Of a stretch of 57,650 nucleotides of DNA, positions 5,710 through 43,522 are shown piece after piece. The first letter of the stretch is position 1; every line of letters starts with the position of its first letter. Both the position numbers and the translations under genes were made by a program. The stretch is taken from assembly GCA_964464735.1 (NCBI GenBank), contig CAYXKF010000005.1, forward strand, positions 1 to 57,650. The letters run 5' to 3'. The stretch comes from an uncultured Candidatus Saccharibacteria bacterium. GTDB taxonomy: Bacteria; Patescibacteriota; Minisyncoccia; Phycocordibacterales; UBA1006. The notes beneath the pieces are model-generated. The model was given only the letters and a program-made list of their open reading frames with translations, searched no databases and had not been told where the DNA came from.

Positions 5710-7689
5710 TTACACAAAGCCTCCCAGTCGATAGCGGTTTTGGGTCGCATAGGGCACAAAAGCTGCCCGCATATAAGGAATACGGGCAAACAAAGCGCCT
5801 ACCATTGATACATATTCAACAATGGATTGGTGGCCATTAAACCCAGACACGCTATAGGTAACAACCTGCATTGGTATTTTTTTTGAACCAATAACACCAT
5901 ACGAAGCTGACTGCATTACCGTAGCAGCGTAAGCTTTGGCATTTTCGAAAAGAATTAACTGTGCTTTTTCATGAATCGCAGCCGTTCCCGAAACAACAAC
6001 CGCAAGGGTTGGCGCAGGTAACATATGAAATCGGTACGCTGACGATACATATGCATGCAGTCGATCTGAGTAGTCATTTCCGGTATACATGCGAATGTCG
6101 GATCGTTCGTCAGTTGTCTGTATGTGCACATGCGCCTGCGCGTGATCACGGATTACGCGGGCGACAAACTCGCCATGGTCAAACATGTTTGCAACGGGTG
6201 CTGCAACAATACCTTCATGCGAAACAATAACAATGTGGTCAAACTTTTTTGATGACCGGTCAAGATCAAAAATAGTACCAATGCAAATTGCATTACCTTC
6301 GACTGAATCCTTAAAGACCGATCCGTCAGCAATATTTTTAAGAGAGCCACTTTTTTCATTGCGTACAAACAGAACTTCAGGATCTATTAATTTTAAGGCA
6401 GATTCGGCTATGCGTTCGATTCCAAGCCCAAGTGAAATTAATGTATAGCCATCACAATTAGGGCACTTATCAAATGGAGGGTAATCAGCTTTACAATCAA
6501 CACAGACTAATGACCGCCGTGCATCTGTTTTTGTTGAAATGACATTTTTTAAAACCAACATCCCGTCACACACTTTGCACCGCATAATAGTGCTGCAATC
6601 TTTACAGGTAACCGAAGGTGCATATCCATGGCGTGACGCGACAATAAAAACGCTTTGTTTTTTATCTGCCGCACCTAAAAGCACTTCTTCTGCTTTTTTA
6701 CCAAATACTTTATATTCAGGATTTTTTTGGTCAACGTGCTTATTGCCAACAAGTTCGGTCTCGACAAGGCCGTTGCGCGCATATGCATGAAATTGCAACC
6801 CAGGCGTATCAACATGTACAGGGGACGGCAACAATGCAGCATCTGCCTGTTCACCGTAAGACGTATATGCCTGGGTCGAAAGGGGAAAGTCGGCAAAGGT
6901 TATAGGTACATCAAATGTGCGCGCGACAAAATCGCACAACAATCGGTAGTCAATAAATGGTTGTTTCATTGCATGGTACTGCGGATGGTTTTCGAACTCA
7001 CATATCATAAACGCAGGAGCGCGCATAAACGCTGCACTAATAGTATGTGCAGTCACACAATAAATAATCACACGCTTTTTTGAAACAGCCGATGCATTTT
7101 TTTTAGAATGAGCCTTGGTAACCGAAACACATATAATAGCATCGTCGGCAAGCAAAGTATTTATATCACGCGCAATACGGTCGGAAAGTTCCTGCGTAGG
7201 ACAAATAATAACAATCGGTGTTTCTGTTTGGCCCATATTTTGCACAAGCTTTGCATAATGACTGATACGTTCAGCATAAGAGGTCGAGAATAAAGTTTTA
7301 TTATACCCAGATGCACTAAATGGCATTTTGTCGCCAATCGACTGCGGAATTTTGGCACTACGCACGTGCGTAAGCGATGTAACGCTTGCAAGGATTTTTG
7401 CATCTGATACTTGGTACAGTATTCCAAACTCGGCGCACGCCTGTAAAAAACGAGGTTCGATAAAGCGTTCATAAATAGTATCAATTACTTCATGTACCGC
7501 AAAGCCCGCGCTGCGTACCATTGTACGCGCCTGCGCTAGTGTTTGGCACGAAAGCACAATTGCCGACTGCGTTTGCTTGCGAAACGAAACACGCACTAAC
7601 GCGCCAACCTTGATCGGTTGTTTTGACCGATATGCAAGCGATTCACCAAAAGCTCCCATTTTGCAGACAGTAACCGTAATAATATACAT
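5710..7689 (-). CDS. priA: primosomal protein N' (PriA)-like protein with degenerate helicase motifs
   Basis: N-terminal VRVSFRKQTQSAIVLS, the Cys-rich zinc region CKDC..CKVC...CVDC...CPNC, and GLGIERI are collinear with PriA. Start set at ATG 7689 (MYIITV), 6 nt after TACTAT, which avoids overlap with gltX. Confidence 0.8.
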   Translation of the reverse strand: MYIITVTVCKMGAFGESLAYRSKQPIKVGALVRVSFRKQTQSAIVLSCQTLAQARTMVRSAGFAVHEVIDTIYERFIEPRFLQACAEFGILYQVSDAKILASVTSLTHVRSAKIPQSIGDKMPFSASGYNKTLFSTSYAERISHYAKLVQNMGQTETPIVIICPTQELSDRIARDINTLLADDAIICVSVTKAHSKKNASAVSKKRVIIYCVTAHTISAAFMRAPAFMICEFENHPQYHAMKQPFIDYRLLCDFVARTFDVPITFADFPLSTQAYTSYGEQADAALLPSPVHVDTPGLQFHAYARNGLVETELVGNKHVDQKNPEYKVFGKKAEEVLLGAADKKQSVFIVASRHGYAPSVTCKDCSTIMRCKVCDGMLVLKNVISTKTDARRSLVCVDCKADYPPFDKCPNCDGYTLISLGLGIERIAESALKLIDPEVLFVRNEKSGSLKNIADGSVFKDSVEGNAICIGTIFDLDRSSKKFDHIVIVSHEGIVAAPVANMFDHGEFVARVIRDHAQAHVHIQTTDERSDIRMYTGNDYSDRLHAYVSSAYRFHMLPAPTLAVVVSGTAAIHEKAQLILFENAKAYAATVMQSASYGVIGSKKIPMQVVTYSVSGFNGHQSIVEYVSMVGALFARIPYMRAAFVPYATQNRYRLGGFV

Positions 7690-7695
7690 AGGGTA

Positions 7696-7701
7696 ATAGT
7701 A
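7696..7701 (-). promoter_or_regulatory. -10-like box (TACTAT) 6 nt before the priA ATG
   Basis: The minus strand reads TACTAT-TACCCT-ATG. Confidence 0.4.
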
Positions 7702-7748
7702 GCACTCGCATTCGTATTTTAAAAATCCTATGTTAGAATGATTTTTGT

Positions 7749-9113
7749 ATGTCAGAAGCACCAAAAAAGGTCATAACACGTATGGCGCCAAGCCCGACCG
7801 GCAAATTCCATGTTGGCGGCGTACGCACAGCTTTGTACAACTACTTATTCGCCCGCAAGCATGGCGGTACGTTTATTTTACGCATCGAAGACACGGACAA
7901 GGAGCGCAGTAAAAAAGAATACGAAGACGACATTTTGGACGCTTTTTCTTGGCTTGGAATGGAATACGATACCATCTACCGCCAATCTGAACGAACTGCG
8001 ATCTATCAGTCGTACATTAAAAAAATGCTTGATAACGGTCATGCGTACGAAGGCGAACCATCCGAAGGTTCAGGCAAGCCTGTCATCCGCCTAAAAAACC
8101 CAAACAAGGAAGTCGTTATTGACGACCAAATGCTAGGCGAGGTTAAAATCGACACGACCGATTTGGGCGACTTTGTGATTGCGCGTGATATCGATTCGCC
8201 GCTGTACCACTTAACCGTCGTTGTTGATGACTGCGAAATGGGGATTACGCATGTGATCCGCGCGCAAGAACATCTTGCTAACACGCCGCGCCAAATTTTG
8301 ATTCAAGAAGCGATTGGCTGCACACGGCCGACCTATGCGCATATTCCATTGGTACTTGCACCTGACAAATCAAAATTGTCTAAGCGTCATGGTGCAACGG
8401 CCGCAACCGACTACCGCGCTTTGGGATACCTTCCCGAAGCAATGATTAACTTTTTGGCATTTATCGGATGGAACCCGGGCGGCGAACAAGAATTATTTAC
8501 CAAAGAAAAACTGATAACGCTCTTTGACTTGCACCAGGTACAAAAAGGCGGGGGAGTTTTTAATATCGACAAACTTAAATGGTTTAACAAAGAATATTTG
8601 CACAAAAAATCGTTCGACGAACAAAAGGCTTACCTTGCCGATGTCCGAAGTTTTTTTGAAAACCTGTGCGAGTGCGCATTTAGCGACGAACACTGGGACA
8701 AATGCGTACCACTTATTATCGAACGCATCTCGGTTAAAAGTGATGTTGAAGAACTGTTTCGCACCAAGGGCGAATTTGTATATTTATTTAAGCGTCCCGA
8801 CGAATATTCACGCGATGATATTTTTTGGAAAAAAGATACACCTGAACGTTCACGCGATGTTTTGATCGAACTGCATAAAAAAATCACCGCCTACGAAGGG
8901 GATTGGACAAAAGAATCATTGCAAAACTTTTTTATGCCGTATGCCGAAGAACAAGGTAAAGGTTCGGTCTTATGGCCACTGCGGTATGCACTTTCGGGTA
9001 AACGCGAATCGGTAGACCCATTTACACTATTGTACGTGCTTGAAAAAACCGAATCATTGGCACGTATCGCTTCTGCAGTGCAATACGCTTATGATATCGA
9101 AATCGCTGCATAA
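7749..9113 (+). CDS. gltX: glutamyl-tRNA synthetase
   Basis: 454 aa. RMAPSPTGKFHVGGVRTALYNY (HIGH-type motif), KLSKRHG (KMSKS) and a class I Glx catalytic-core pattern. Confidence 0.93.
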   Translation: MSEAPKKVITRMAPSPTGKFHVGGVRTALYNYLFARKHGGTFILRIEDTDKERSKKEYEDDILDAFSWLGMEYDTIYRQSERTAIYQSYIKKMLDNGHAYEGEPSEGSGKPVIRLKNPNKEVVIDDQMLGEVKIDTTDLGDFVIARDIDSPLYHLTVVVDDCEMGITHVIRAQEHLANTPRQILIQEAIGCTRPTYAHIPLVLAPDKSKLSKRHGATAATDYRALGYLPEAMINFLAFIGWNPGGEQELFTKEKLITLFDLHQVQKGGGVFNIDKLKWFNKEYLHKKSFDEQKAYLADVRSFFENLCECAFSDEHWDKCVPLIIERISVKSDVEELFRTKGEFVYLFKRPDEYSRDDIFWKKDTPERSRDVLIELHKKITAYEGDWTKESLQNFFMPYAEEQGKGSVLWPLRYALSGKRESVDPFTLLYVLEKTESLARIASAVQYAYDIEIAA

Positions 9114-11265: not shown

Positions 11266-11739
11266 ATGTTTTTGGTGATTTCAGGACATAATATTTTTTA
11301 TTTCTTGCAATCACCAAAAACAATAACATTGAGTACAGGACAATTTACCGTAAACAGCGGCAACGAACGTTTGACCTTTAGGCCGCTCGCCAAGGGCTGG
11401 TTCAGATGTAACCAGACAGGCCAAAAAACTAAAAGACCGGAAAGATACTCCAATATGGTAACAAAAGCAGCGCAGAATGCGCTGCTGCAGGAACAGCAAA
11501 AAGAGCAGCAAAAAAATGCCGAGGCTTACAAAAACTCGCTTGAAAAAGTTGAAGTGAGTTTCGGACAATGGGATTGTCCGAAATGCACAAAATTAAATTA
11601 CTACGGAAAAATCGATTCTGTTGTAAAGTGTATGAAGTGCCATGAGGCATTTCATACAATAAGGCGCTTAGTTATTTCTAAACCCGAAGAAGAGCAGCTG
11701 CAATTTCGTAGCTCAAATCTAACAAGGGGATGGTTTTAG
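11266..11739 (+). CDS. hypothetical protein with C-terminal zinc ribbon
   Basis: 157 aa with CPKC-x17-CMKC. A TATAAT box at 11255-11260 lies 5 nt before ATG 11266. Confidence 0.45.
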   Translation: MFLVISGHNIFYFLQSPKTITLSTGQFTVNSGNERLTFRPLAKGWFRCNQTGQKTKRPERYSNMVTKAAQNALLQEQQKEQQKNAEAYKNSLEKVEVSFGQWDCPKCTKLNYYGKIDSVVKCMKCHEAFHTIRRLVISKPEEEQLQFRSSNLTRGWF

Positions 11740-12665: not shown

Positions 12666-12681
12666 TTTGATTCCCCATTGC

Positions 12682-12712
12682 AAAAGCCCTGCTGATACAG
12701 CGGGGCTTTTGT
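12682..12712 (+). terminator. rho-independent terminator after rpmA
   Basis: AAAAGCCCTGCTG-ATA-CAGCGGGGCTTTTG followed by TTTT. Confidence 0.75.
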
Positions 12713-13471: not shown

Positions 13472-15121
13472 TTATGCCACTTCGCGCTGATAACAATCGA
13501 TGCATAAGATATGTTTATATCCAAGCTCGGGCGGATAGTAGGCCTCGATCCCCTTTTTACACTGGTCGCATTCGTAATAATGTTTTGTTATCGAAATCAT
13601 TGGCTGATATTGCTTAATGGTGCGGTAATCAGGGTGGAATTTTGGAAGTGCAATACCAAAGCGTTTATAAAACCTTAGTTCATGCCCGGCAATATTAAAC
13701 TTAAAATGCGTCATTGGACAGATAAGCGGTATTTTGGTTATTTCGTCGGTCGCATCTACAATATTATCGGGCAACGTTTCAGGAGCTTGCCCATCAACTT
13801 GCGACAAATTTGTTTCGTCCCAATAGCCACCTTGCGAAAGGACAAATTCTTTTGTTACCGACGGCATATACACCGCGCCCATCGTGCGGTTATACGGCGC
13901 CAGCCCCATACTGTACGGAGCAAACTTCCCGTATTCACCGCGCGCCTTCATGTTTGCAATAATTGTTGCTTTTAACGCTTCGTATTCTTCTTTAGTGTAT
14001 TGCGTATTCAAGATACAATATTTTTTATTGCGCAGTCCAACACAGCCAAAACAATGTGCGCACTGCGAACATAAATCAAGGTATTCACAGTCGACACCAT
14101 CAGACCACGACGAATATTTTAAATTATTACCACCGGTGCAGCATGAATTATTGCCGCAAAATTCTTGCAGCCAAGTACCCAGCATATCAATGCACGATTT
14201 GCACTTAAGGCCTCGCAGACAGTTAAAAATATCTTCGGATTCTTGCCAATGAAAACTGTTTTGTGCACGATTGCAATTAAGTAGGTATTCCCCTTCTGAA
14301 TCCTGCGTCCTTAAATTAAAGTTTTGTCGGTGGCGCACATCATTTTTAATGTGCAACTCAAATTCAGCATCAAGCAAAGTGCGAGATGCGCGCGACCCAG
14401 GATTCATTTTTTGTAGTTCAGCGTGATAGGTCTCTTTAGTATATTGCACGTTGCGGATCATGTAAGATGCATTGCGCAAGTTCCAGCACATAAAACAATT
14501 GCTGCAGTTGCGGCAATCAAAACAATATGCCGAATCGATCATATTTTGGCTGTTGCGCGACGACTGTAAGTTTTGCGAATTAAGACAATTAACACAGTCG
14601 TAAGAATTTTCAAGGTCAAAACAAAATGTGCAATGGGTCGAATTGTTTAGGCGCACACAACGGTTGCAATACGATACGTCTTCGCAATGCGTGATCGACC
14701 TGCACAAGTAGCAATTTTTAGAATCCCACACATCATCGCACCAATCACAACCCACACTACGTTCGCCGACCTGATGCGGTCGCGGCACTTTTTCTTGCAG
14801 CTCTTTCCATTGGTCAAAAAATGAACGCGCTGGGTCATAGGTTTGTCCAAATAACATAGGGTCCCATGCGTCCGAATACCATTCGTGGTATGCATAAATG
14901 GGATAACGCGCCGGCTCGGGCAATATGGTAATAAACGATTCACCCGACAAATCCGACTTTCCTTTTCTAAATTTTCCCAAAGGCCAAAAAGCAAACTTTT
15001 GGGCCACGCTACAACTAAAACAGGTAGGAGGAATTTCAAGATTTATTTTTTCGTACATCGCAAGTTCGCCATCTGTAATCGTAAAATCTTTATTGCAATG
15101 TTCGCACATTCTAGTTTGCAT
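13472..15121 (-). CDS. Cys-rich multi-zinc-ribbon repeat protein, paralogue C (unknown family)
   Basis: Shares CEHC..F.I.....YEKI...PPTCF.C at the N-terminus and two modules ending C..C.NCF.C..LRN..Y.I.N.QYTKE.Y with the 15435 and 17153 ORFs. Start placed at ATG 15121 (MQTRMCEHC), 2 nt after the cutA stop. Confidence 0.75.
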   Translation of the reverse strand: MQTRMCEHCNKDFTITDGELAMYEKINLEIPPTCFSCSVAQKFAFWPLGKFRKGKSDLSGESFITILPEPARYPIYAYHEWYSDAWDPMLFGQTYDPARSFFDQWKELQEKVPRPHQVGERSVGCDWCDDVWDSKNCYLCRSITHCEDVSYCNRCVRLNNSTHCTFCFDLENSYDCVNCLNSQNLQSSRNSQNMIDSAYCFDCRNCSNCFMCWNLRNASYMIRNVQYTKETYHAELQKMNPGSRASRTLLDAEFELHIKNDVRHRQNFNLRTQDSEGEYLLNCNRAQNSFHWQESEDIFNCLRGLKCKSCIDMLGTWLQEFCGNNSCCTGGNNLKYSSWSDGVDCEYLDLCSQCAHCFGCVGLRNKKYCILNTQYTKEEYEALKATIIANMKARGEYGKFAPYSMGLAPYNRTMGAVYMPSVTKEFVLSQGGYWDETNLSQVDGQAPETLPDNIVDATDEITKIPLICPMTHFKFNIAGHELRFYKRFGIALPKFHPDYRTIKQYQPMISITKHYYECDQCKKGIEAYYPPELGYKHILCIDCYQREVA

Positions 15122-15123
15122 AG

Positions 15124-15432
15124 TTACGCTTTGGTTGTATTGTTTGCCCACTCTTGATATGTATTATTAATGATATCAATTTGCGTACGCGCAATCAGCG
15201 GAACAGCATAACTATGCTTTGCTTCGATACGCGCTTCAAGGTCGGCGGCATACTCGCTATGCGTAATAAATGTCATCAAGTATTGTTCGACAGTTTCAAC
15301 CTTTCCCTCCCATAAATAAGTCGATTTGACCGGAAAATAGTCAACGCACGCCGCAAGTTTTGCGCTTATCACTTCGGTTGCCAATGCTTGCGCGTCTTCG
15401 ATGTTCTTAATAGTAGTATGAATATAAATCAT
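15124..15432 (-). CDS. cutA: divalent-cation tolerance protein CutA
   Basis: 102 aa. A..LA..VI..KLAACV...PV.S.Y.WEGKVE...E..M..KT fits the CutA1 pattern. Confidence 0.85.
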   Translation of the reverse strand: MIYIHTTIKNIEDAQALATEVISAKLAACVDYFPVKSTYLWEGKVETVEQYLMTFITHSEYAADLEARIEAKHSYAVPLIARTQIDIINNTYQEWANNTTKA

Positions 15433-15434
15433 GA

Positions 15435-17156
15435 TTATAAAATAGTTTTCTGATAACAGCTTTCACAGTAAATAATTTCGCTTCGATTTGGCGCATACGG
15501 CGTATCAAATTCGTTTCCACAGTTGTTCATACAACTGCGATGGTACAATTTAAACGGTAACAACTCCCCTACCCGTTCTTTAATGCGCTGTAATGGAGCA
15601 ACATCGGGTACTGGTAGCCCTAAAGTGCGATAAAACTGCAGCTCGGAAGCGGTAATACGGTAGGCTTTTCCCGAATGGGCACATTGCAAGACCGCCTGCA
15701 AAACATCGTCGCCTACATCCTTGATATTATCTGGAAGTTCATAATCTGTAAATGTATATTCGCTTGCCGGCTCTTCGCGCCAAGTAAATCCATCTTGAAT
15801 TGCCGCTTCTTTTGATAAAGGATAAAAGTCATTTGATACACATTCGTTATAAGCAAACAGCGAATGTTCGGCAGGATAAAAGTCCCCATACGCATGCATA
15901 TATCCCACCGACGAAATAAACGGCATTTCTTTCATGTGGGCAATAACTTTGGGAAGCAGCGCCTCGTATTCTTCTTTAGTGTATTGCTTGTTCAAAATGC
16001 AGTATTGTTTTTTACGCGTCCCCACACAACCAAAGCAGTTTGAACATTCGATTATAGTATGACTGTATTCACAATTAAGAGCATGCTTTCGGTTTTGATA
16101 ATCACCCCCAAGCGCATACAAAATAAATTTACAGTTATACAGCCCGCCACCATTGCCGTTCATATACCCTAATTCGTTACCGGCGCAAGAAGTTTCGTCA
16201 TGAGAATCTTTTGACCATGCGGCTATATACTGGTTTTTTACGTTTTCAACCCCGTCAACCTGCCATACGTTATGCGCGTTTTTAGAATTCACCATGTCGT
16301 TTCCCGAACAATCGATAACATTGTTTGCCACACGGTAACACCGCGGCGTCATACTCCATACGGCGTGTGATTTCTGGCGCAACTCGGCAATTGACCTTCG
16401 TGATCCAAGGTCGTATTTTGCTTTTTCCTTCAGGTATTCTTCTTTGGTGTATTGCTTATTAAATATTTGGTACGACGCATGACGCAGCCCGGCGCAGCCA
16501 ATTATATTATTACAATTGCGGCAGTCATACGAAAAAATAGTGTCCATGCAATCGTAGCATTCGCGCGAATAAAAGGTACGGTAACAGCGCTCGATAACAA
16601 TGTCCTCCAGGCACTTTTCTGACTGAAATGCCCAGTACGAATCATAGACTTCTTTTCCATACAAGGCGTATTCACAGAAGGCACTATATTCGTTTCCAAT
16701 TCCTCCAAATGTCAGGTAACAACCTTTGCTGTCGTTTTCCATATTCGAATAGTCACTATCGACCATGTTCGTTGTAAGCGTTGCAGCGTGCGGGACGGCA
16801 AGCAAGAGTTCATAAAATTGCTGGAAAAACGGTTTCGTAAAATCATAGTCACGGCCATAATCTGTCGAACTCCAATCATCTGACCACCAACACTCGCGAC
16901 AATACATTCTTGCCGGATTATGCGGCGAGATGCGCGAAATGACCATTTTGTTGCATTTATCACAAGGGCGCTTATACAACGACTTAACGTTACGGGCAGC
17001 CAGCCGCTGCTGGTTTCGGCAGTCGACACAAAACGTCGGTGGGGGTACTTTTATTTTTTCATAAAAATCAAAATCATCCGAAGCAATTTCGAATTGCAAT
17101 TTGCAGTTTTGGCAAGCTCGCACAGAGGTTGCCGAATCTGTTTTATTTTCATTCAT
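15435..17156 (-). CDS. Cys-rich multi-zinc-ribbon repeat protein, paralogue B (unknown family)
   Basis: CQNC..FEI...DFDFYEKIKVPPPTFCVDC, CDKC-x17-CREC, two C..C.NC..C.GLR..Y.I.NKQYTKEEY modules and C-terminal CMNC-x17-CESC. I count about 32 Cys by hand. ATG 17156 overlaps the upstream stop as ATGA. Confidence 0.8.
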   Translation of the reverse strand: MNENKTDSATSVRACQNCKLQFEIASDDFDFYEKIKVPPPTFCVDCRNQQRLAARNVKSLYKRPCDKCNKMVISRISPHNPARMYCRECWWSDDWSSTDYGRDYDFTKPFFQQFYELLLAVPHAATLTTNMVDSDYSNMENDSKGCYLTFGGIGNEYSAFCEYALYGKEVYDSYWAFQSEKCLEDIVIERCYRTFYSRECYDCMDTIFSYDCRNCNNIIGCAGLRHASYQIFNKQYTKEEYLKEKAKYDLGSRRSIAELRQKSHAVWSMTPRCYRVANNVIDCSGNDMVNSKNAHNVWQVDGVENVKNQYIAAWSKDSHDETSCAGNELGYMNGNGGGLYNCKFILYALGGDYQNRKHALNCEYSHTIIECSNCFGCVGTRKKQYCILNKQYTKEEYEALLPKVIAHMKEMPFISSVGYMHAYGDFYPAEHSLFAYNECVSNDFYPLSKEAAIQDGFTWREEPASEYTFTDYELPDNIKDVGDDVLQAVLQCAHSGKAYRITASELQFYRTLGLPVPDVAPLQRIKERVGELLPFKLYHRSCMNNCGNEFDTPYAPNRSEIIYCESCYQKTIL

Positions 17157-18889
17157 AAAACTTCTTTTTGATAACATTGTTCACAGTAAATCTTCTCGCA
17201 TCGACCAGGCGCATACGCTGTTTCAAAGGTATTTGAGCATTTTTCGCCATGGTCGTGCACTCCATTATCGCACATACACTGCCGGTTCCATAATTCTAGC
17301 GGCGTACGCTTTTCGAATCGATGCGAATGACGGCATCCGTAGCACAACCGCGGAAGCGGTATATTAAGCCGTCGGTAAAAAGTAAGCTCATTTGCAAGAA
17401 TCTTGTAGGCAGACGCACAACGGTGACTGCAGGTCCCAGCGTGTTCACATTCGATTATTTCATCAACGATAGTGTCTTCTATCTCGCTGATATTATCTGG
17501 AAGTTCCGTACTTTTTATAGTTGGATGATATTGACGCCCTTCTTTTTCTCTCCACCTAAAACCAGATTCTATTGCTTCAGTTTGTGAAAGCGGATAAAAG
17601 TCATTGGCGATTGTCTCGTTATAGGCAAAGGGAGAAAGTTCGATGGGAAAAAATTCACCATATCGGTAAGTATTTCCTTTCGCATCGATATATGGCATAT
17701 CCATCATATGTTGTTTAATTTTCGCCACAAGTTCAAAATACTCTTCTTTGGTATATTGGCGATTCAAAATGCAGTACGACTTATTTCTTAACCCAATGCA
17801 ACCAAATAAGTCGTGGCAACTATAGCAGTTAAACGAGTACTCGACATTGTTAGAATAATAAACCACATTGCAGAAATTACACGATACCCCTCCCGCTCCG
17901 GTATCATACGACTCAAAACTATTTTCAAGCATTGCGATTGCATTGCAATAATAACAACTGAACACATTTTCGGCTGCCCAAAAAAGGTATTTAGTATCCT
18001 TAACATTACCCGAAACATCAAAAACCGATTTGCTGTCGATCACGCCACTGATGTCATTACCTGTCGTATTGTGGCAGTTAATCATCGTTGCATATTTATG
18101 AATTGCATTACTTTTAAGCATTTCGAATTGGTTTTTCAGTTTTTTAATTGCCAGGAAACTTCCTAAATTATATTGGCCGACTTTTTGAAAATATTCATCC
18201 TTAGAATATTGAACATTTTCAAAACAATAACTTTTGTTTCGCAAATTCGAACACATAAAACAATTCACGCACCCTTTGCAATCATACAAAAAATAACTAT
18301 CGGTTGATGAAGTTGTTTTTTCACTATAAAAAAGCCTGCTTGAGTCTGCGCAGTAAATATCTTCGTAGCAAAACTCACTGCGAAAAACCACATATAAATC
18401 AAGAGAGTCCTTAATATTTGTAATAGAGTCGGCATACATGACTCTTTCGTTTTTCCATGCCGCAGAAACTAAATAGCAATCATAACTCTCTTCTGCCACA
18501 TTACAGTATTCGCTGTTTACCGCCTTTGAATTTGATAATGACTGAAATGGCACCTGATCGCGAAGATCCCTCCATTGTTTAAAGAAGGGTTCAGTAAAAT
18601 CGTATTCGAAACCATAATCAAGCGGATCCCATTGATCTCCCCACCAATACGATTGATCAACGATATTCATCTTCGTGTCAGGATGATAAATCGAAATCAT
18701 GCTTTTTCCGGTAACGGGATCTGGTCGCCGATATAACGCCAGAGTATTACGCCATGCAAAACGGCGCTGATGTGAGCAGCGGGGGCAAAACGTCGGTGGG
18801 GGCACTTTTATTTTTTCATAAAACGCGAAATCCTCGGGTTCGATGACAAATTGCTTTTTACAGTTCTGGCAATTTCGCATTTCATTCAT
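17153..18889 (-). CDS. Cys-rich multi-zinc-ribbon repeat protein, paralogue A (unknown family)
   Basis: 578 aa. CQNCKKQFVIEPEDFAFYEKIKVPPPTFCPRC and the same two QY(S/T)K(D/E)EY modules and C-terminal zinc ribbon as paralogue B. It begins 7 nt after the rplI stop. Confidence 0.8.
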   Translation of the reverse strand: MNEMRNCQNCKKQFVIEPEDFAFYEKIKVPPPTFCPRCSHQRRFAWRNTLALYRRPDPVTGKSMISIYHPDTKMNIVDQSYWWGDQWDPLDYGFEYDFTEPFFKQWRDLRDQVPFQSLSNSKAVNSEYCNVAEESYDCYLVSAAWKNERVMYADSITNIKDSLDLYVVFRSEFCYEDIYCADSSRLFYSEKTTSSTDSYFLYDCKGCVNCFMCSNLRNKSYCFENVQYSKDEYFQKVGQYNLGSFLAIKKLKNQFEMLKSNAIHKYATMINCHNTTGNDISGVIDSKSVFDVSGNVKDTKYLFWAAENVFSCYYCNAIAMLENSFESYDTGAGGVSCNFCNVVYYSNNVEYSFNCYSCHDLFGCIGLRNKSYCILNRQYTKEEYFELVAKIKQHMMDMPYIDAKGNTYRYGEFFPIELSPFAYNETIANDFYPLSQTEAIESGFRWREKEGRQYHPTIKSTELPDNISEIEDTIVDEIIECEHAGTCSHRCASAYKILANELTFYRRLNIPLPRLCYGCRHSHRFEKRTPLELWNRQCMCDNGVHDHGEKCSNTFETAYAPGRCEKIYCEQCYQKEVL

Positions 18890-18895
18890 AGGTTG

Positions 18896-19336
18896 TTATT
18901 CGCCCTTTACCGTAACCGTAAGTGAATACTGCGTACTACCAATTTTAACCATACACAAATGATCGCCAGTTTCTTTAAATGCACAATCTTTTACATAACT
19001 ATCAATTGATGGCAAATTTTGATACAGCTGCGCAAACGCTGCTGCAATTTCTTTAGCGCCCACAGCTTTATACAAATGCCCTTTTTCATTTCCTTTTGCC
19101 ACAATAGTAAGTGCAACGGGTTCGCCCGAAAGTATTTTAATAATTGCCTTTTCGTCGGCAGTTACCTTATCGCTTTGACTTTTTAATGATTCTAAAAACT
19201 TTTTAGCTTCGGCCGTGTCAGCCCGAAATGCCTTTTTTTGAGGTATTAAAAAGTTGTGTGCGTATCCGTCAGCTACGTCTTTAGTTTCGCCCCGGCGGCC
19301 GATCTTTTTAACATCCGTTATCATGACTACCTTCAT
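18896..19336 (-). CDS. rplI: 50S ribosomal protein bL9
   Basis: MKVVMITDVKKIGRRGETKDVADGYAHNFLIPQKKA. Start set at the second M (19336). Confidence 0.92.
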   Translation of the reverse strand: MKVVMITDVKKIGRRGETKDVADGYAHNFLIPQKKAFRADTAEAKKFLESLKSQSDKVTADEKAIIKILSGEPVALTIVAKGNEKGHLYKAVGAKEIAAAFAQLYQNLPSIDSYVKDCAFKETGDHLCMVKIGSTQYSLTVTVKGE

Positions 19337-19347
19337 ATATACCAAGT

Positions 19348-36302: not shown

Positions 36303-37082
36303 TTAATTAATAGTAGAATCTTCAAATAGATTACCTCCTCTAATAATATATTCCGCGAGTTTATTTCCGAAATCTGTCAACCGCGAGCCATTATATGACT
36401 GAAAATCATTTCCTCTTCCGTCAAGAGCAAATTGATTATGGTTTCTAGGTACAATTAATCGCAAGTCTTCTAAGTTGCTTTGCCTAGATTCAACATATTC
36501 CGGTAAAGAATATCCACAAGCTTTCGCCACCATTCTTGCCCAAACACTGGAGAAATTAGTGTTTAAACTTCCGTTTGCAATACTTTGTATTTCTTGCATT
36601 TTATCTCGAGAATAAAGTCCATTTTTAATCCGATAAGTAGCTAAAAGTATGGCAACTTCCGGTCCATTTAACTTACGTGCAGTTTCAAGCAAAATATAAA
36701 TCTCAGCAACTTCTTCATTTGCAGTGTTCTCTGCAAAAGTAAGAAGATGTAAGTTTCTTAATGCTTCCACAAACTCGTCATCAAGCACTGGTGAATTGTG
36801 TAAAAACTTTAAAGTTTCATAAAGTTTCCTATGGGGCAGGACGCATTCGGATTTTCTCAAAGCATCTTTTGATTTAAGAAATTCCTGTATTTCTAGACCC
36901 ATTTTTGCAATAACTTGAGAAGTAAAAAGTGCCCCCGCGGCAAACAAATGACTGACAGGTTCGTAAGCAAATGGAATAGTAGCCACATATGAACTAAGTA
37001 GTTTTGAAGCAAGCTCAGCAGCATCATTAGTTGAGAAATCCAATTTTACTAAATTTTTATCCTTTTTCATAATTTGCCGCAA
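36303..37082 (-). CDS. unknown 259-aa protein overlapping the upstream DUF4263-type nuclease gene
   Basis: It overlaps the nuclease gene by 26 nt (14 nt from the M5 start) and has the same very low GC. No catalytic motif was recognised. There is only a loose resemblance to Abi-alpha/DUF4393-type helical proteins (DDEFVEALRNLHLLTFAEN...LNGPEVAILLATY). Confidence 0.65.
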   Translation of the reverse strand: MRQIMKKDKNLVKLDFSTNDAAELASKLLSSYVATIPFAYEPVSHLFAAGALFTSQVIAKMGLEIQEFLKSKDALRKSECVLPHRKLYETLKFLHNSPVLDDEFVEALRNLHLLTFAENTANEEVAEIYILLETARKLNGPEVAILLATYRIKNGLYSRDKMQEIQSIANGSLNTNFSSVWARMVAKACGYSLPEYVESRQSNLEDLRLIVPRNHNQFALDGRGNDFQSYNGSRLTDFGNKLAEYIIRGGNLFEDSTIN

Positions 37083-38475
37083 TATTATCCGAATACCTTT
37101 CCGCCATGTTCAGTATTTCATCAAAAGTTAATACTTGTATATTTTGAATACTATTTCTAAGCTTTGTAAAATCTCTTTCAAGCCTGTCTTTATCAATTTC
37201 TCTCCTTCCTTTAAATATTTTTTCTTTTGAAGAAATTACAATAATACCCCGGGGATGATATAAATTTTGCTTTCCGTATGTATTTCTTATAATTTCTTTT
37301 TTATCCTGCACATTTTTAAATCTCTCCCTCGAAATACTCTCCATATAATTAATTATCTGAATAACCGCTTTACTCATTTCTGAGGAAAATGCAAAATTTT
37401 TATGAGAGTTATCCCAAACTAAAATATCTTTTAGGTGAGTTTTTATTTCAATTACATCAACTCCTCCATAATGATTAATCCCGATAAAATCTGGTTTATT
37501 TTCAACATCTTGAAAATCACTTAATTCAACCTTTGGAATGATTTTTCTATAGGAAAAGATCAAATACAAAAGATACTCTTCAAAGTATTTTTGCCACAAT
37601 GTTTCTAATTGAGAAATGGACTCTCCTGGAGCAACTTTTTTTGCTATTTTTTGAGCTTTTGGCGTTTTTATTTCTTCCGATTTTAACAGCAAAATCTGCT
37701 TACCAATTTTTATTATTCTTTCTAAATTTTCCTTAATAAAATATGCATCGAGTTTTCTAAGATATTCTTTTGGAAAAACTTCCTTTTTAATCATTCGATC
37801 AAACATTTCTCCAAGGGCAGCTAGATCCTCAATATTCAAATATTTATTAAAATCACTTTTATCTTTCTTTGTTGATAAATTAAATCGATCCAAAAGAAAT
37901 TTAAAATCACCTGCTGTAGTGGTGGTAGTTGGTTTAATTTTTATATTAAGAAAATCAAAAATTGAGTTATTTATTAGATATCTCTGTAAAGCATCCTTAG
38001 AACTTTTACCTTGTGATTCAATATTTTCTGTTCTTTTTTTTACTTCCAAATATTCATTAAAAGAAATTTGTAATACATTTTTTTGTTTCTTAATACCTTC
38101 ATATGTTTTTGATACTTTAATTTTTTCTATTCTTCTGTCACGAATTTGTAAAATCTTTTGAAATATTGAGTAATTATATGATATGCAGTAACCACCTCCT
38201 GATTGCCCGCCTGACCAAAATTCTAAAAGCTCTTGTGGTTTAATATCATTATCGAATTCTAAGTACTCGACACAAGACCTTGGGACAACATCGCGAGTAT
38301 CTCTATTATATAGAAAAAATTTAATGACGGATGTAGTAGTCTTTTCTTCAAAAACCACTTCGCCATCATATAAAATTATTTTATTCTTTTCATCTACAGC
38401 AAAGGTGCCTGCCCATGAAAGTTCTTTGAAAAACTCATATATGTTTTTCTCACTCGTATTTTCTTGAATTTCCAT
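37057..38475 (-). CDS. Shedu-type (SduA/DUF4263-like) PD-(D/E)xK nuclease with unrecognised N-terminal region
   Basis: The C-terminal ~180 aa read LWQKYFEEYLLYL...KPDFIGINHYGGVDVIEIKTHL...SKAVIQIINYMESI...HPRGIIVISSKE...NIQVLTFDEIL, collinear with the DUF4263 nuclease core (D...E.K). Start placed at ATG 38475 (MEIQEN) because the 38559 start lies inside the atpC terminator. Confidence 0.75.
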   Translation of the reverse strand: MEIQENTSEKNIYEFFKELSWAGTFAVDEKNKIILYDGEVVFEEKTTTSVIKFFLYNRDTRDVVPRSCVEYLEFDNDIKPQELLEFWSGGQSGGGYCISYNYSIFQKILQIRDRRIEKIKVSKTYEGIKKQKNVLQISFNEYLEVKKRTENIESQGKSSKDALQRYLINNSIFDFLNIKIKPTTTTTAGDFKFLLDRFNLSTKKDKSDFNKYLNIEDLAALGEMFDRMIKKEVFPKEYLRKLDAYFIKENLERIIKIGKQILLLKSEEIKTPKAQKIAKKVAPGESISQLETLWQKYFEEYLLYLIFSYRKIIPKVELSDFQDVENKPDFIGINHYGGVDVIEIKTHLKDILVWDNSHKNFAFSSEMSKAVIQIINYMESISRERFKNVQDKKEIIRNTYGKQNLYHPRGIIVISSKEKIFKGRREIDKDRLERDFTKLRNSIQNIQVLTFDEILNMAERYSDNIAANYEKG

Positions 38476-38534
38476 ACAACGTCGATTTAATGAAATATCT
38501 TTTATCAAACAAGACTCGTAAAATATATTATAAA

Positions 38535-38562
38535 GCAAAAAAATGCTATTATCTAGCATCTT
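38535..38562 (-). terminator. rho-independent terminator after atpC
   Basis: The minus strand reads GATGCTA-GATAA-TAGCAT followed by TTTTTTT. A TATAAT box (38532-38527) follows on the same strand. Confidence 0.6.
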
Positions 38563-39680: not shown

Positions 39681-41087
<1,407 letters not shown>

Positions 41088-42016: not shown

Positions 42017-43522
42017 CTAGCTCGTGAACTGCTTTTCGCACTCTGAAAGAAGTTCGCGCACTTTTGCCTCTGAACCTTCTGACCACATGCCCTTAGCGCG
42101 GATATCTTCGTAAAATTCAGGCGCATTGGTTTCGACATACGACGTAATGTAGCTTTCGTATTCACCCATGCGGTTTACCGGAATAGAATCAGCATATCCT
42201 TGCGCAAGTGCAAACAATGTCAGTGCCTGCTTTTCGGCTGGTACTGGCGCATACTGCTTTTGCTTTAGCAGCTCTACCGCACGGCGTCCTCGTTCAAGTT
42301 GTTTTAGTGTTGCTTCATCCAAGTCTGAACCGAATTGTGAAAACGCTTCGAGTTCACGAAACTGTGCTAGGTCAAGTTTTAGGGTACCGGCTACTTTTTT
42401 CATTGCTTTGATTTGCGCCGATGAACCCACACGTGATACCGAGAATCCGACGTTAATAGCCGGACGCACGCCCTTGTAAAACAAGTCAGTTTCCAAGAAG
42501 ATCTGCCCGTCAGTAATCGAAATAACGTTTGTCGGGATGTATGCCGAAATGTCGCCGGCTTGGGTTTCGATAATCGGAAGTGCCGTGATTGATCCCCCGC
42601 CAAAGTCTTCGTTCAGGCGGCACGCGCGTTCAAGAAGTCGCGAATGCAAATAAAATACGTCACCCGGATACGCTTCACGACCCGGTGGACGGCGAAGAAG
42701 CAATGAAATTTCGCGGTAACTGGTTGCATGCTTTGAAAGGTCATCGTAAATGATCAAGACATCTTTTCCTTGTTCCAAAAAGAATTCGGCAATAGCAACG
42801 CCCGAATATGGCGCAATATAGTTCATCGAAGCCGGGTCTGATGCCGACGCCGACACGATGACGGTGTATTTCATCGCTTCGGCTTCACGCAATCGGGTTT
42901 CAAGCGCGCGCAATTTTGATTCTTTTTGACCGATCGAAACGTACACGCAGATCATGTTCTGCCCTTTTTGATTGATGATGGTGTCGATCGCAATTGCCGT
43001 TTTACCGGTTTGGCGATCCCCAATGATAAGCTCGCGCTGTCCTCGGCCGACTGGTACCAGTGCGTCAATCGCTTTAATACCAGTTTGAAGCGGCTGGCTT
43101 ACTGACTTTCGGGTGATAACACCCGGAGCAACACGTTCGACAAGCATCATCTTTTCTGCGGTAATTGGCGCGCCTCCGTCGATCGGAGTTCCCAATGCGT
43201 CAACGACACGGCCAAGCATCGAATTGCTTGCAGGAACTTCAAGAATGCGGCCGGTAGATTTTACTGTGTCACCTTCTTTGATGTGTGCGGTCGAACCGAA
43301 CACGATGATACCCACGGTTTCGCGCTCAAGGTTTAGCGCAATGCCGCGAGTCCCATCCTGAAATTCCACGATTTCAGAAGACCGTACCTGCGACAGACCC
43401 GACACCTGGACGATACCATCGTACACCTTTTGCACGACACCGACATGCTCGCCCGCGCCATCATAAGCAAAGCGTGCAAGTTCTTTTTCGAATTGTTGAA
43501 AAACTGATTGTGTATTGTCCAT
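42017..43522 (-). CDS. atpA: F1 ATP synthase alpha subunit
   Basis: 501 aa with Walker [18 protein letters not shown] and [20 protein letters not shown]. Confidence 0.97.

Follow-up and report, generated by a model that had tools for sequence, protein, structure and literature searches.

What do three long, cysteine-rich proteins, encoded one behind the other downstream of a ribosomal protein gene, do in a member of the Patescibacteria, and are they peculiar to it? The question is raised by a contig of an uncultured Candidatus Saccharibacteria bacterium (GenBank assembly GCA_964464735.1, contig CAYXKF010000005.1), of which the stretch analysed here, 57,650 nucleotides (nt) long, is referred to as the window. 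Its minus strand carries the paralogues A (17153..18889, 578 amino acids (aa), 33 Cys, member of the broad 'sub12' subfamily), B (15435..17156, 573 aa, 32 Cys, equal to database protein P0001) and C (13472..15121, 549 aa, 38 Cys, member of a tight orthologous subfamily). A preliminary description, made without database searches, had recognised three homologous open reading frames (ORFs) of a single architecture and counted about 32 cysteines by hand in the middle copy; the coordinates and the quoted motifs were confirmed, the count proved to be exact, and homology was evident in tblastn comparisons (A/B E 5e-128 with 39% identity, A/C 2e-68 with 29%, B/C 6e-62 with 30%). We conclude with high confidence that these proteins belong to a Patescibacteria-wide family of soluble multi-Cys proteins with a duplicated architecture, which was previously uncharacterised. 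Longer in-frame starts exist for B (ATG at 17177, seven additional codons) and C (GTG at 15151, ten additional codons), and the alignment of relatives together with the database gene calls (P0001, 573 aa; P0121, 549 aa) favours the shorter starts, those adopted in the preliminary description, as the probable ones.

The architecture was examined in an alignment of 194 full-length relatives drawn from 84 loci, and is given here in B numbering, all features lying on the minus strand. Each chain consists of a finger pair, two modules, an acidic alpha/beta domain and a second finger pair. The N-terminal double zinc finger (residues 12-94; 16875..17123) combines a treble-clef-like finger (C15, C18, C43, C46), the cysteines of which are conserved at 99% across the members, with a ribbon (C65, C68, C86, C89), and the motif C-x2-C ... 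FYEKIKVPPPTFC..C is present in the copies, in degenerate form in C. Cys-ladder module 1 (residues 126-245; 16422..16781) is closed by a cap coil (C212-x2-C215-x2-(C218)-x2-C221) and a helix (LRN..Y.I.N.QYTKEEY), module 2 (residues 285-410; 15927..16304) has its own cap and helix, and both terminate in C..C.NCF.C..LRN..Y.I.N.QYTKEEY. They are followed by the acidic alpha/beta domain (residues 411-486; 15699..15926), which is conserved (YGEFFP.E.S.F.YNE ...) and carries a net charge of -12, and by the C-terminal double finger (residues 487-572; 15441..15698). The copies share an FY(R/K)...P.P segment in their C-terminal part together with the final zinc ribbon, directly after which the protein stops. 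The four cysteines of this last ribbon (C542, C546, C564, C567), arranged in two knuckles, are conserved at 99-100%. The third finger is degenerate in B, where C520 and C523 are lost; its second knuckle (CxxC), present in 85% of the family, is kept only in A among the window copies, the third finger of which has both knuckles. Details of the preliminary description needed correction: the second N-terminal CxxC…CxxC ribbon, ascribed to every copy, has its four cysteines in B and none in A or C, and the C-terminal ribbon, given as CxxC-x17-CxxC, does exist, with the spacing CxxxC-x17-CxxC in B and CxxC-x18-CxxC in C.

Across the 194 members the number of cysteines per protein has a median of 34 (range 26-42), and 23 Cys columns are conserved at ≥ 50%. 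The least conserved parts are the coils of the modules, where positional entropy peaks, and the linker that joins the modules, whereas entropy reaches its minimum in finger 1, the two caps and the last ribbon; some paralogues have Ser or hydrophobic residues at many module Cys positions. Aromatic residues make up 13-15% of the protein, and conserved motifs devoid of Cys are found as well. The whole proteins are acidic (isoelectric point (pI) 5.5-6) but have mildly basic finger regions (net +2 to +3), a transmembrane-like segment or signal peptide was found in 0 of 204 members, and no conserved catalytic His was seen in the alignment.

Parts of the chain resemble one another. Profile comparisons with hhalign matched module 1 with module 2 (P 99.9%, E 3e-37), the N-terminal treble-clef-like finger with the third finger (P 99.1%, E 4e-19) and the second ribbon with the last one (P 97.6%, E 4e-12), a pattern that shows two levels of internal duplication, one of the modules and one of the finger pairs. 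Within module 1, Cys-Cys distances of 3, 6, 9 ... 39 occur at 2.4-4.1 times the expectation and other distances at about 0.05 times, and residue identity has a weak super-period of 12 residues. Written in 12-residue rows, the module sequence reads xxC xxC xxC xxx, and each module ends in a coil of the form C-x2-C-x2-C-x2-C, after which comes LRN..Y.I.N.QY(T/S)KEEY. AlphaFold models were obtained for B (43 sequences; predicted local distance difference test (pLDDT) 81, predicted template modelling score (pTM) 0.82) and C (94 sequences; pLDDT 89.3, pTM 0.87). In the C model, module 2 (pLDDT > 92) is beta-rich with a break every 12 residues, and the cap coils have a beta bridge at the first residue of each triplet. 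A Foldseek search of the PDB with the C model returned left-handed beta-helix proteins as all of its top 50 matches; the B model gave nothing under E 3 against the PDB, and against BFVD only small zinc-ribbon proteins and HNH-type noise, the best structural matches there being phage 'zinc-ribbon domain' proteins (root-mean-square deviation (rmsd) 0.6-0.9 Å over 42-45 columns). With moderate confidence, we take the modules to be narrow beta-solenoids with a Cys-ladder core and the terminal fingers to be probable zinc-binding elements. The check for a beta-helix or a zinc-ribbon array that had been proposed at the outset was thus positive in outline, as judged by hhalign, Cys periodicity, the C model and Foldseek.

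The left-handed parallel beta-helix (gamma-carbonic anhydrase, LpxA, LpxD, GlmU, PerB) is the only PDB fold that was matched, and it resembles the modules in being solenoid-like. Its repeat is 6 residues and its coil 18, whereas the family has a repeat of 3 and a super-period of 12, and Pfam Hexapep gave no match at E up to 1 in the window copies or their relatives, which places the family outside the hexapeptide-repeat proteins. We therefore read the modules as a putative beta-solenoid of a kind not represented in the PDB, and the matches as something other than homology to left-handed beta-helix proteins. A further likeness, offered as a lead only, is that to the insect antifreeze beta-helix of the Tenebrio type, which is built of 12-residue coils with small or Cys residues at every third position; the family follows the same logic in its sequence, with a coil of 12 residues and a putatively inward Cys or Ser at every third. 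The antifreeze proteins are secreted and disulfide-bonded, with cysteines 6 residues apart and a Thr-x-Thr ice-binding face, whereas the family is cytoplasmic, has cysteines 3 residues apart and no Thr-x-Thr face, and has five to seven times the size. The two were connected by no match in sequence or in Foldseek: this 12-residue beta-helix was absent from the Pfam matches, the PDB sequence search and the listed Foldseek matches.

Is the family nevertheless known under some other name? The preliminary description had not recognised it, and the databases agreed. No model in Pfam, NCBIfam or PADLOC covered the protein body of the three copies or of 43 relatives, in which only terminal zinc-finger matches below threshold were found; PDB sequences, searched with a profile, yielded nothing but LIM-domain noise at E 0.2; PADLOC defence models yielded 0 families for A, B and C; and no paper on the family was found in the library searched. 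A confident match to a characterised family in Pfam, NCBIfam, PADLOC or the PDB, or a lack of conservation of the cysteines, would have spoken against a new family; no such match was obtained, and the Cys positions are conserved in the 194 members. The terminal fingers are of the type of zf_Tbcl_2 (PF23477) and TIGR04272 and, as regards the N-terminal finger, possibly of that of zf_Tbcl (PF13451). B matched zf_Tbcl_2 and TIGR04272 with 20.6 and 20.4 bits (E 3.5e-4 and 3e-4), below the cutoffs of 27 (Pfam) and 36 (NCBIfam), and A and C had no match to either, so that none of the window copies reached a curated cutoff. Among the 43 relatives, 28 matched zf_Tbcl_2 (best E 3.5e-07) and 10 matched zf_Tbcl (best 8.6e-06), the latter having no match in the window copies. 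Proteins of the zf_Tbcl type are single small domains, whereas the fingers of the family span about 170 of about 570 residues and occur as duplicated pairs at both ends of a large body without any model. Source names were 'hypothetical protein' throughout, with the exception of a legacy 'Caib/baif family protein' on the orthologue P0157, a label that occurred once among the 240 relatives listed; this CoA-transferase name was rejected, as no family III domain of the CaiB/BaiF type was matched in the 43 members or the three copies (Pfam, NCBIfam). With its body compared against Pfam, NCBIfam, PADLOC, the PDB and BFVD, we regard it as a new protein family and a putative new fold variant.

The family is large. 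An exhaustive HMMER search over 1.84 billion representatives retrieved 5,489 clusters at 50% identity with E ≤ 1e-3, of which 2,292 had E ≤ 1e-30, and the best 150 clusters were 528-602 aa long. A word-indexed search with B, in which the best 8,000 candidates were scored, gave at least 7,976 matches at E ≤ 1e-3, a search with C gave 4,839 relatives, and at least 583 relatives were found in GTDB species representatives. Almost all members stem from Patescibacteria, with Paceibacterota/Parcubacteria as source lineages (Nomura-, Staskawicz-, Lipton-, Jorgensen-, Wolfe-, Giovannoni-, Sungii- and Gribaldobacteria). An origin from mobile elements was rejected, since no relatives were found in phage and plasmid collections (tblastn) or in IMG/VR (scan).

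The nearest relatives of the window copies are in other genomes: A is 68% identical to a copy in locus L078, B 65% to one in L003 and C 53% to copies in L050 and L079, whereas identity among the window copies is lower (about 41%, 30% and 30%). The best 120 matches of the C subfamily are all 50-55% identical and 548-560 aa long and come from many lineages. As all three have closer kin in other genomes than beside them in the window, and as the C group is tight, they are ancient, maintained paralogues of old subfamilies. The recent, lineage-specific expansion that had been suggested for this array has to be rejected on the same grounds, the more so for a family with thousands of clusters across the Patescibacteria.

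We then turn to the locus itself. Upstream of A lies rplI (18896..19345, minus strand), identified as the gene of ribosomal protein L9 by both Pfam domains (Ribosomal_L9_N 2.2e-16, L9_C 2.9e-05) and by the equivalog TIGR00158 (E 4.3e-24; 85.7 bits, cutoff 58.6), and between B and C lies cutA (15124..15432, minus strand, 102 aa), which belongs to the CutA1 family (Pfam CutA1 1.4e-24; 86.2 bits, cutoff 22.4, profile positions 2-98 of 99 covered) and scores 74 bits against the NCBIfam equivalog NF041095, under its 120-bit cutoff. The gap between rplI and A is 6 nt and not 7 as first counted; the 4-nt ATGA overlap of A and B and the gaps of 2 nt from B to cutA and from cutA to C were as described. 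The co-directional run goes on upstream of rplI with genes for an S41 peptidase and a DUF4015 protein. Downstream, a strong hairpin (12680..12712; GC-rich 15-bp stem, T-runs on both sides) is located between the convergent rpmA (plus strand) and a HAD hydrolase gene (minus strand); it is a likely bidirectional terminator and the probable end of the long minus-strand run that holds the three paralogues. No terminator-like site of the minus strand was found within 13472-18889, and promoter and terminator scans inside the array performed no better than on shuffled sequence. A single transcript of rplI, A, B, cutA and C is plausible because the junctions are close, no internal minus-strand terminator-like site occurs and the hairpin follows the next downstream gene. 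Arrays are also broken by small unrelated genes elsewhere (DUF1653 in L003, 14887-15198; a cytidylyltransferase-like gene in L041 and L052), so that cutA between B and C exemplifies a more general pattern.

The surroundings of the family in other genomes were compared in the 84 family-anchored loci, taking 10 kb on each side, counting copies of ≥ 400 aa and clustering the neighbouring ORFs. Two or more copies were present at 53 of the 84 loci (1 copy in 31, 2 in 23, 3 in 13, 4 in 5, 5 in 6, 6 in 1, 7 in 2 and 8 in 3), and among 157 adjacent pairs of family genes 154 were co-directional, 83 had a gap of ≤ 100 nt and 26 overlapped. A VirD4/TraG/HerA-like ATPase of about 490-830 aa is the commonest neighbour; it was found at 32/84 loci, mostly as the gene immediately upstream and in the same direction. 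It clears the Pfam thresholds of TrwB_AAD_bind, T4SS-DNA_transf, TraG-D_C and DUF87 and has only weak matches (to the mad8 and HerA models) in PADLOC. In the reverse test, with metagenome loci anchored on the ATPase, family genes were found at 32/80, in 30 cases within 1 kb, and in L166 a C-type copy and a second family copy are flanked by a short ATPase in front and a long ATPase behind. Of the neighbouring ATPases, 38/41 lack a membrane anchor (no hydrophobic 19-mer above 1.6). A CxxC-x15-19-CxxC ribbon is present in all 17 long forms and in none of the 24 short ones, and that of the long ATPase in L013 is a confident zf_Tbcl_2 (E 1e-14), the same Pfam type as the last ribbon of the family.

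These ATPases, directly downstream of which family arrays are found, resemble type IV coupling proteins (VirD4/TraG/TrwB) and differ from them in being mostly without membrane anchor and orphans away from virB4; a canonical type IV coupling protein would have a membrane anchor and lie near virB4 or a relaxase, and no VirB4-like gene was among the recurrent neighbours of the 84 loci. According to a survey from 2025 (PMC12102498), 5,713 VirD4-like genes occur in 2,918 Patescibacteria genomes, of which 148 genes are near virB4; what they do was left open there. The other recurrent neighbours were less frequent: DnaK was near the family at 14/84 loci and DnaJ at 12/84, a protein with sigma region 4 and HARE-HTH at 12/84, and DUF8128, which has an N-terminal membrane segment, at 11/84. 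CutA adjoins family genes or the ATPase at 8/84 loci, typically in the order ATPase, CutA, family gene, and was also met at 5 ATPase-anchored loci. L9 was near the family at 3/84, namely in the window, in L017 with an identical order of DUF4015, S41 peptidase, L9 and family gene, and in L054 within 10 kb. Of the gene linkage that had been proposed for verification across genomes, that with cutA thus recurs, and that with rplI is direct in only one other species representative; being lineage-restricted, the latter was rejected as a functional clue, and the ribosomal role once argued from it loses its argument.

What, then, may the family do? The reading that we prefer, tentatively and as a possibility, is that of zinc-stapled solenoid adaptors or clients of an orphan soluble VirD4/TraG/HerA-like ATPase. 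In it, the modules would be narrow beta-solenoids of about 12 residues per coil, the core of which would be held by a metal, most likely zinc, bound to the inward-facing cysteines; the conserved terminal fingers and caps would serve as common handles, and the paralogues would differ in what they bind by virtue of their variable coil surfaces. The proteins would be alternative adaptors or clients of the ATPase, expressed from tandem and often translationally coupled arrays, with CutA as an occasional accessory. A metal-stapled core is suggested by the Cys register, the cytoplasmic location and the zinc binding of a related CxxC-x17-CxxC domain, two small proteins of Methanosarcina (M. mazei) with this domain having been found to bind zinc by inductively coupled plasma mass spectrometry (PMC12704099). 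Metal binding by the family, proposed from the start, accordingly stays plausible in view of its 23 conserved Cys columns and CxxC-x17-CxxC-type fingers. The partnership with the ATPase is drawn from gene neighbourhood only, and our confidence in it is low. A wider proposal, which we consider doubtful, is that of an undescribed ATPase-driven system specific to the Patescibacteria, which would consist of the family, the orphan soluble VirD4-like ATPase, DUF8128 and at times CutA, and in which the metal-stapled solenoids, with their coils of 12 residues, would be interchangeable cargo or adaptors.

Several observations weigh against the adaptor reading. On the structural side, module 1 was modelled at pLDDT 57-79 only, coil geometry and handedness were taken from DSSP strings of the models, the Foldseek matches of the C model to left-handed beta-helix proteins were weak (best E 3.9e-3, template modelling score 0.1-0.2, rmsd 10-20 Å), and the cysteines of the core may form disulfides instead of holding a metal. 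As regards the partner, the whole 57 kb of the window contain no VirD4-like ATPase, so that the preliminary description could not have met this partner, and at 52/84 family loci it is missing from the 10 kb on each side; related lineages contribute many of the loci, and the counts are raised by conserved synteny among them; dnaK, dnaJ, grpE and housekeeping genes are found in these regions, too; and more distant ATPase homologues occur in a trio of sigma/HARE-HTH, DUF8128 and ATPase without any family gene. Our own sub-domain hidden Markov models (HMMs) detected no family domain in the neighbouring proteins at E 1e-3, and the shared finger that links the family to the long ATPase is hence a matter of Pfam alone.

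Other explanations draw on the same observations. The cysteines themselves invite a role in metal handling, in which the proteins would be buffers or stores of zinc or thiophilic metals, or redox-sensitive zinc switches, acting together with CutA: each protein holds 26-42 cysteines in conserved ladders, cutA is wedged between copies in the window and recurs at 8/84 family loci and 5 ATPase-anchored ones, and a related finger domain binds zinc (PMC12704099). We regard this as unlikely, however, because the long conserved architecture, the 13-15% of aromatic residues, the motifs without Cys and the old, stable subfamilies are unlike metallothionein-type buffers, the Ser and hydrophobic replacements of module cysteines are those expected at structural core positions, and cutA, the product of which has itself an unsettled function, is missing from about 90% of the loci. 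The chaperone genes in the neighbourhood suggest instead a role in proteostasis, with the family as zinc-dependent holdases or co-chaperones (like the Cys-rich domain of DnaJ, or Hsp33) that would work with Hsp70, the ATPase being an unfoldase. Many loci do lie inside a chaperone cluster (dnaK, long ATPase, family gene or genes, short ATPase, dnaJ, family gene), another pattern is grpE, three family genes, PaaX-like gene and dnaK, and the 14 loci with DnaK and 12 with DnaJ belong here, too. This arrangement is limited to some lineages, though, others placing the array after secDF, sigma/HARE-HTH and DUF8128, no chaperone gene is near the array in the window, and the proteins have no sequence similarity to chaperone families in Pfam or NCBIfam, so that we hold the proteostasis explanation to be unlikely as well.

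Variable gene arrays behind a secretion ATPase have an analogue in the effector arrays behind EssC in type VII systems, and the arrays directly downstream of the ATPase, with copy numbers from 1 to 8 or more, together with an ATPase that often adjoins DUF8128 and its N-terminal membrane segment, could accordingly encode exported effectors or surface proteins, delivered in a type IV-like manner via the VirD4-like ATPase. We think this quite improbable: signal peptides and transmembrane segments are absent from all 204 members, 38/41 ATPases lack the membrane anchor of coupling proteins, the subfamilies are old and conserved and not fast-diversifying, and only 148 of the 5,713 homologues of type IV coupling proteins in Patescibacteria are near virB4 (PMC12102498). 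A factor associated with RNA or with the ribosome, finally, would agree with the 6-nt junction behind rplI and the same order of DUF4015, S41 peptidase, L9 and family gene in L017, with one C-type orthologue that follows a ribosomal-protein operon and grpE, and with the mildly basic finger regions. It is the rival with the weakest support from comparative data and, in our judgement, very improbable, given that L9 is near the family at only 3/84 loci, that the whole proteins are acidic, that no known RNA-binding family was matched in Pfam, NCBIfam or PDB sequences, and that translation genes make up a large share of these small genomes, where chance adjacency is common.

The comparison of loci yielded several observations in their own right. 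The trio of sigma-70 region 4 plus HARE-HTH, DUF8128 and VirD4-like ATPase is widespread, also without the Cys-rich family, and often follows secD/secF (L132, L135, L138-L140, L143, L144, L147, L151, L153, L154, L156, L157, L162 and others). In one lineage group, a long and a short VirD4-like ATPase are found between dnaK and dnaJ (L094, L095, L097, L098, L100, L101, L103 and L112 among the ATPase-anchored loci; also L015, L027, L064, L068 and L072), and as this arrangement holds in L100 even without a family gene, the orphan ATPases are part of the chaperone gene cluster there. In L167 (7415-13139), the start of the C-type orthologue overlaps the end of grpE by 23 nt, right after a ribosomal-protein/rpoA operon, and the gene is followed by two further family genes, a PaaX_M-domain gene on the opposite strand and dnaK. 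Locus L068 (JAMPXW010000002.1) is labelled as Burkholderiales bacterium; its gene order (ATPase, dnaJ, family genes, arginase-family gene, cysS, AI-2E transporter, L21, recR, dnaB) is typical of Nomurabacteria-like loci, and it is probably a Patescibacteria contig that was mis-binned into a Burkholderiales metagenome-assembled genome.

Elsewhere in the window, a low-GC stretch on the minus strand (36303-38559; 31% vs. about 44% elsewhere) holds two ORFs, one of 500 aa with a Shedu SduA_C nuclease domain (E 5e-19), the other of 259 aa and without Pfam match, and adjoins F-type ATP synthase genes (39681-41051, 42017-43522); it looks like a small acquired defence islet. A 157-aa ORF on the plus strand (11266-11739) has a zinc-ribbon-like motif (CPKC ... 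CMKC) with a weak RanBP-type match (E 0.002), and a 684-aa ORF on the minus strand (5710-7764) without Pfam match has a similar counterpart in L038.

Patescibacteria genomes are tiny, as a rule well under 1 Mb, and in some of them the arrays cost 10-17 kb, for instance with 8 family genes in 14 kb in L004 and 8-9 genes or fragments in L043, L044 and L065. The structural idea at stake is a very narrow beta-solenoid with a cysteine-ladder core, metal-stapled if our reasoning holds. Should the ATPase-driven system prove true, thousands of 'exapted' coupling-protein homologues would gain a function, and a new metal-core beta-solenoid fold would be defined; should the role of the family be mundane, that of a structural zinc protein and nothing more, its value would be that of a new domain family for the databases. 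Once known, the function of the family would annotate thousands of genes, and it would probably explain the orphan VirD4-like ATPases that the 2025 survey left open (PMC12102498). The family marks a large gap in what is known of one of the major radiations of bacteria, and comes with an odd, testable structural signature and a concrete candidate partner.

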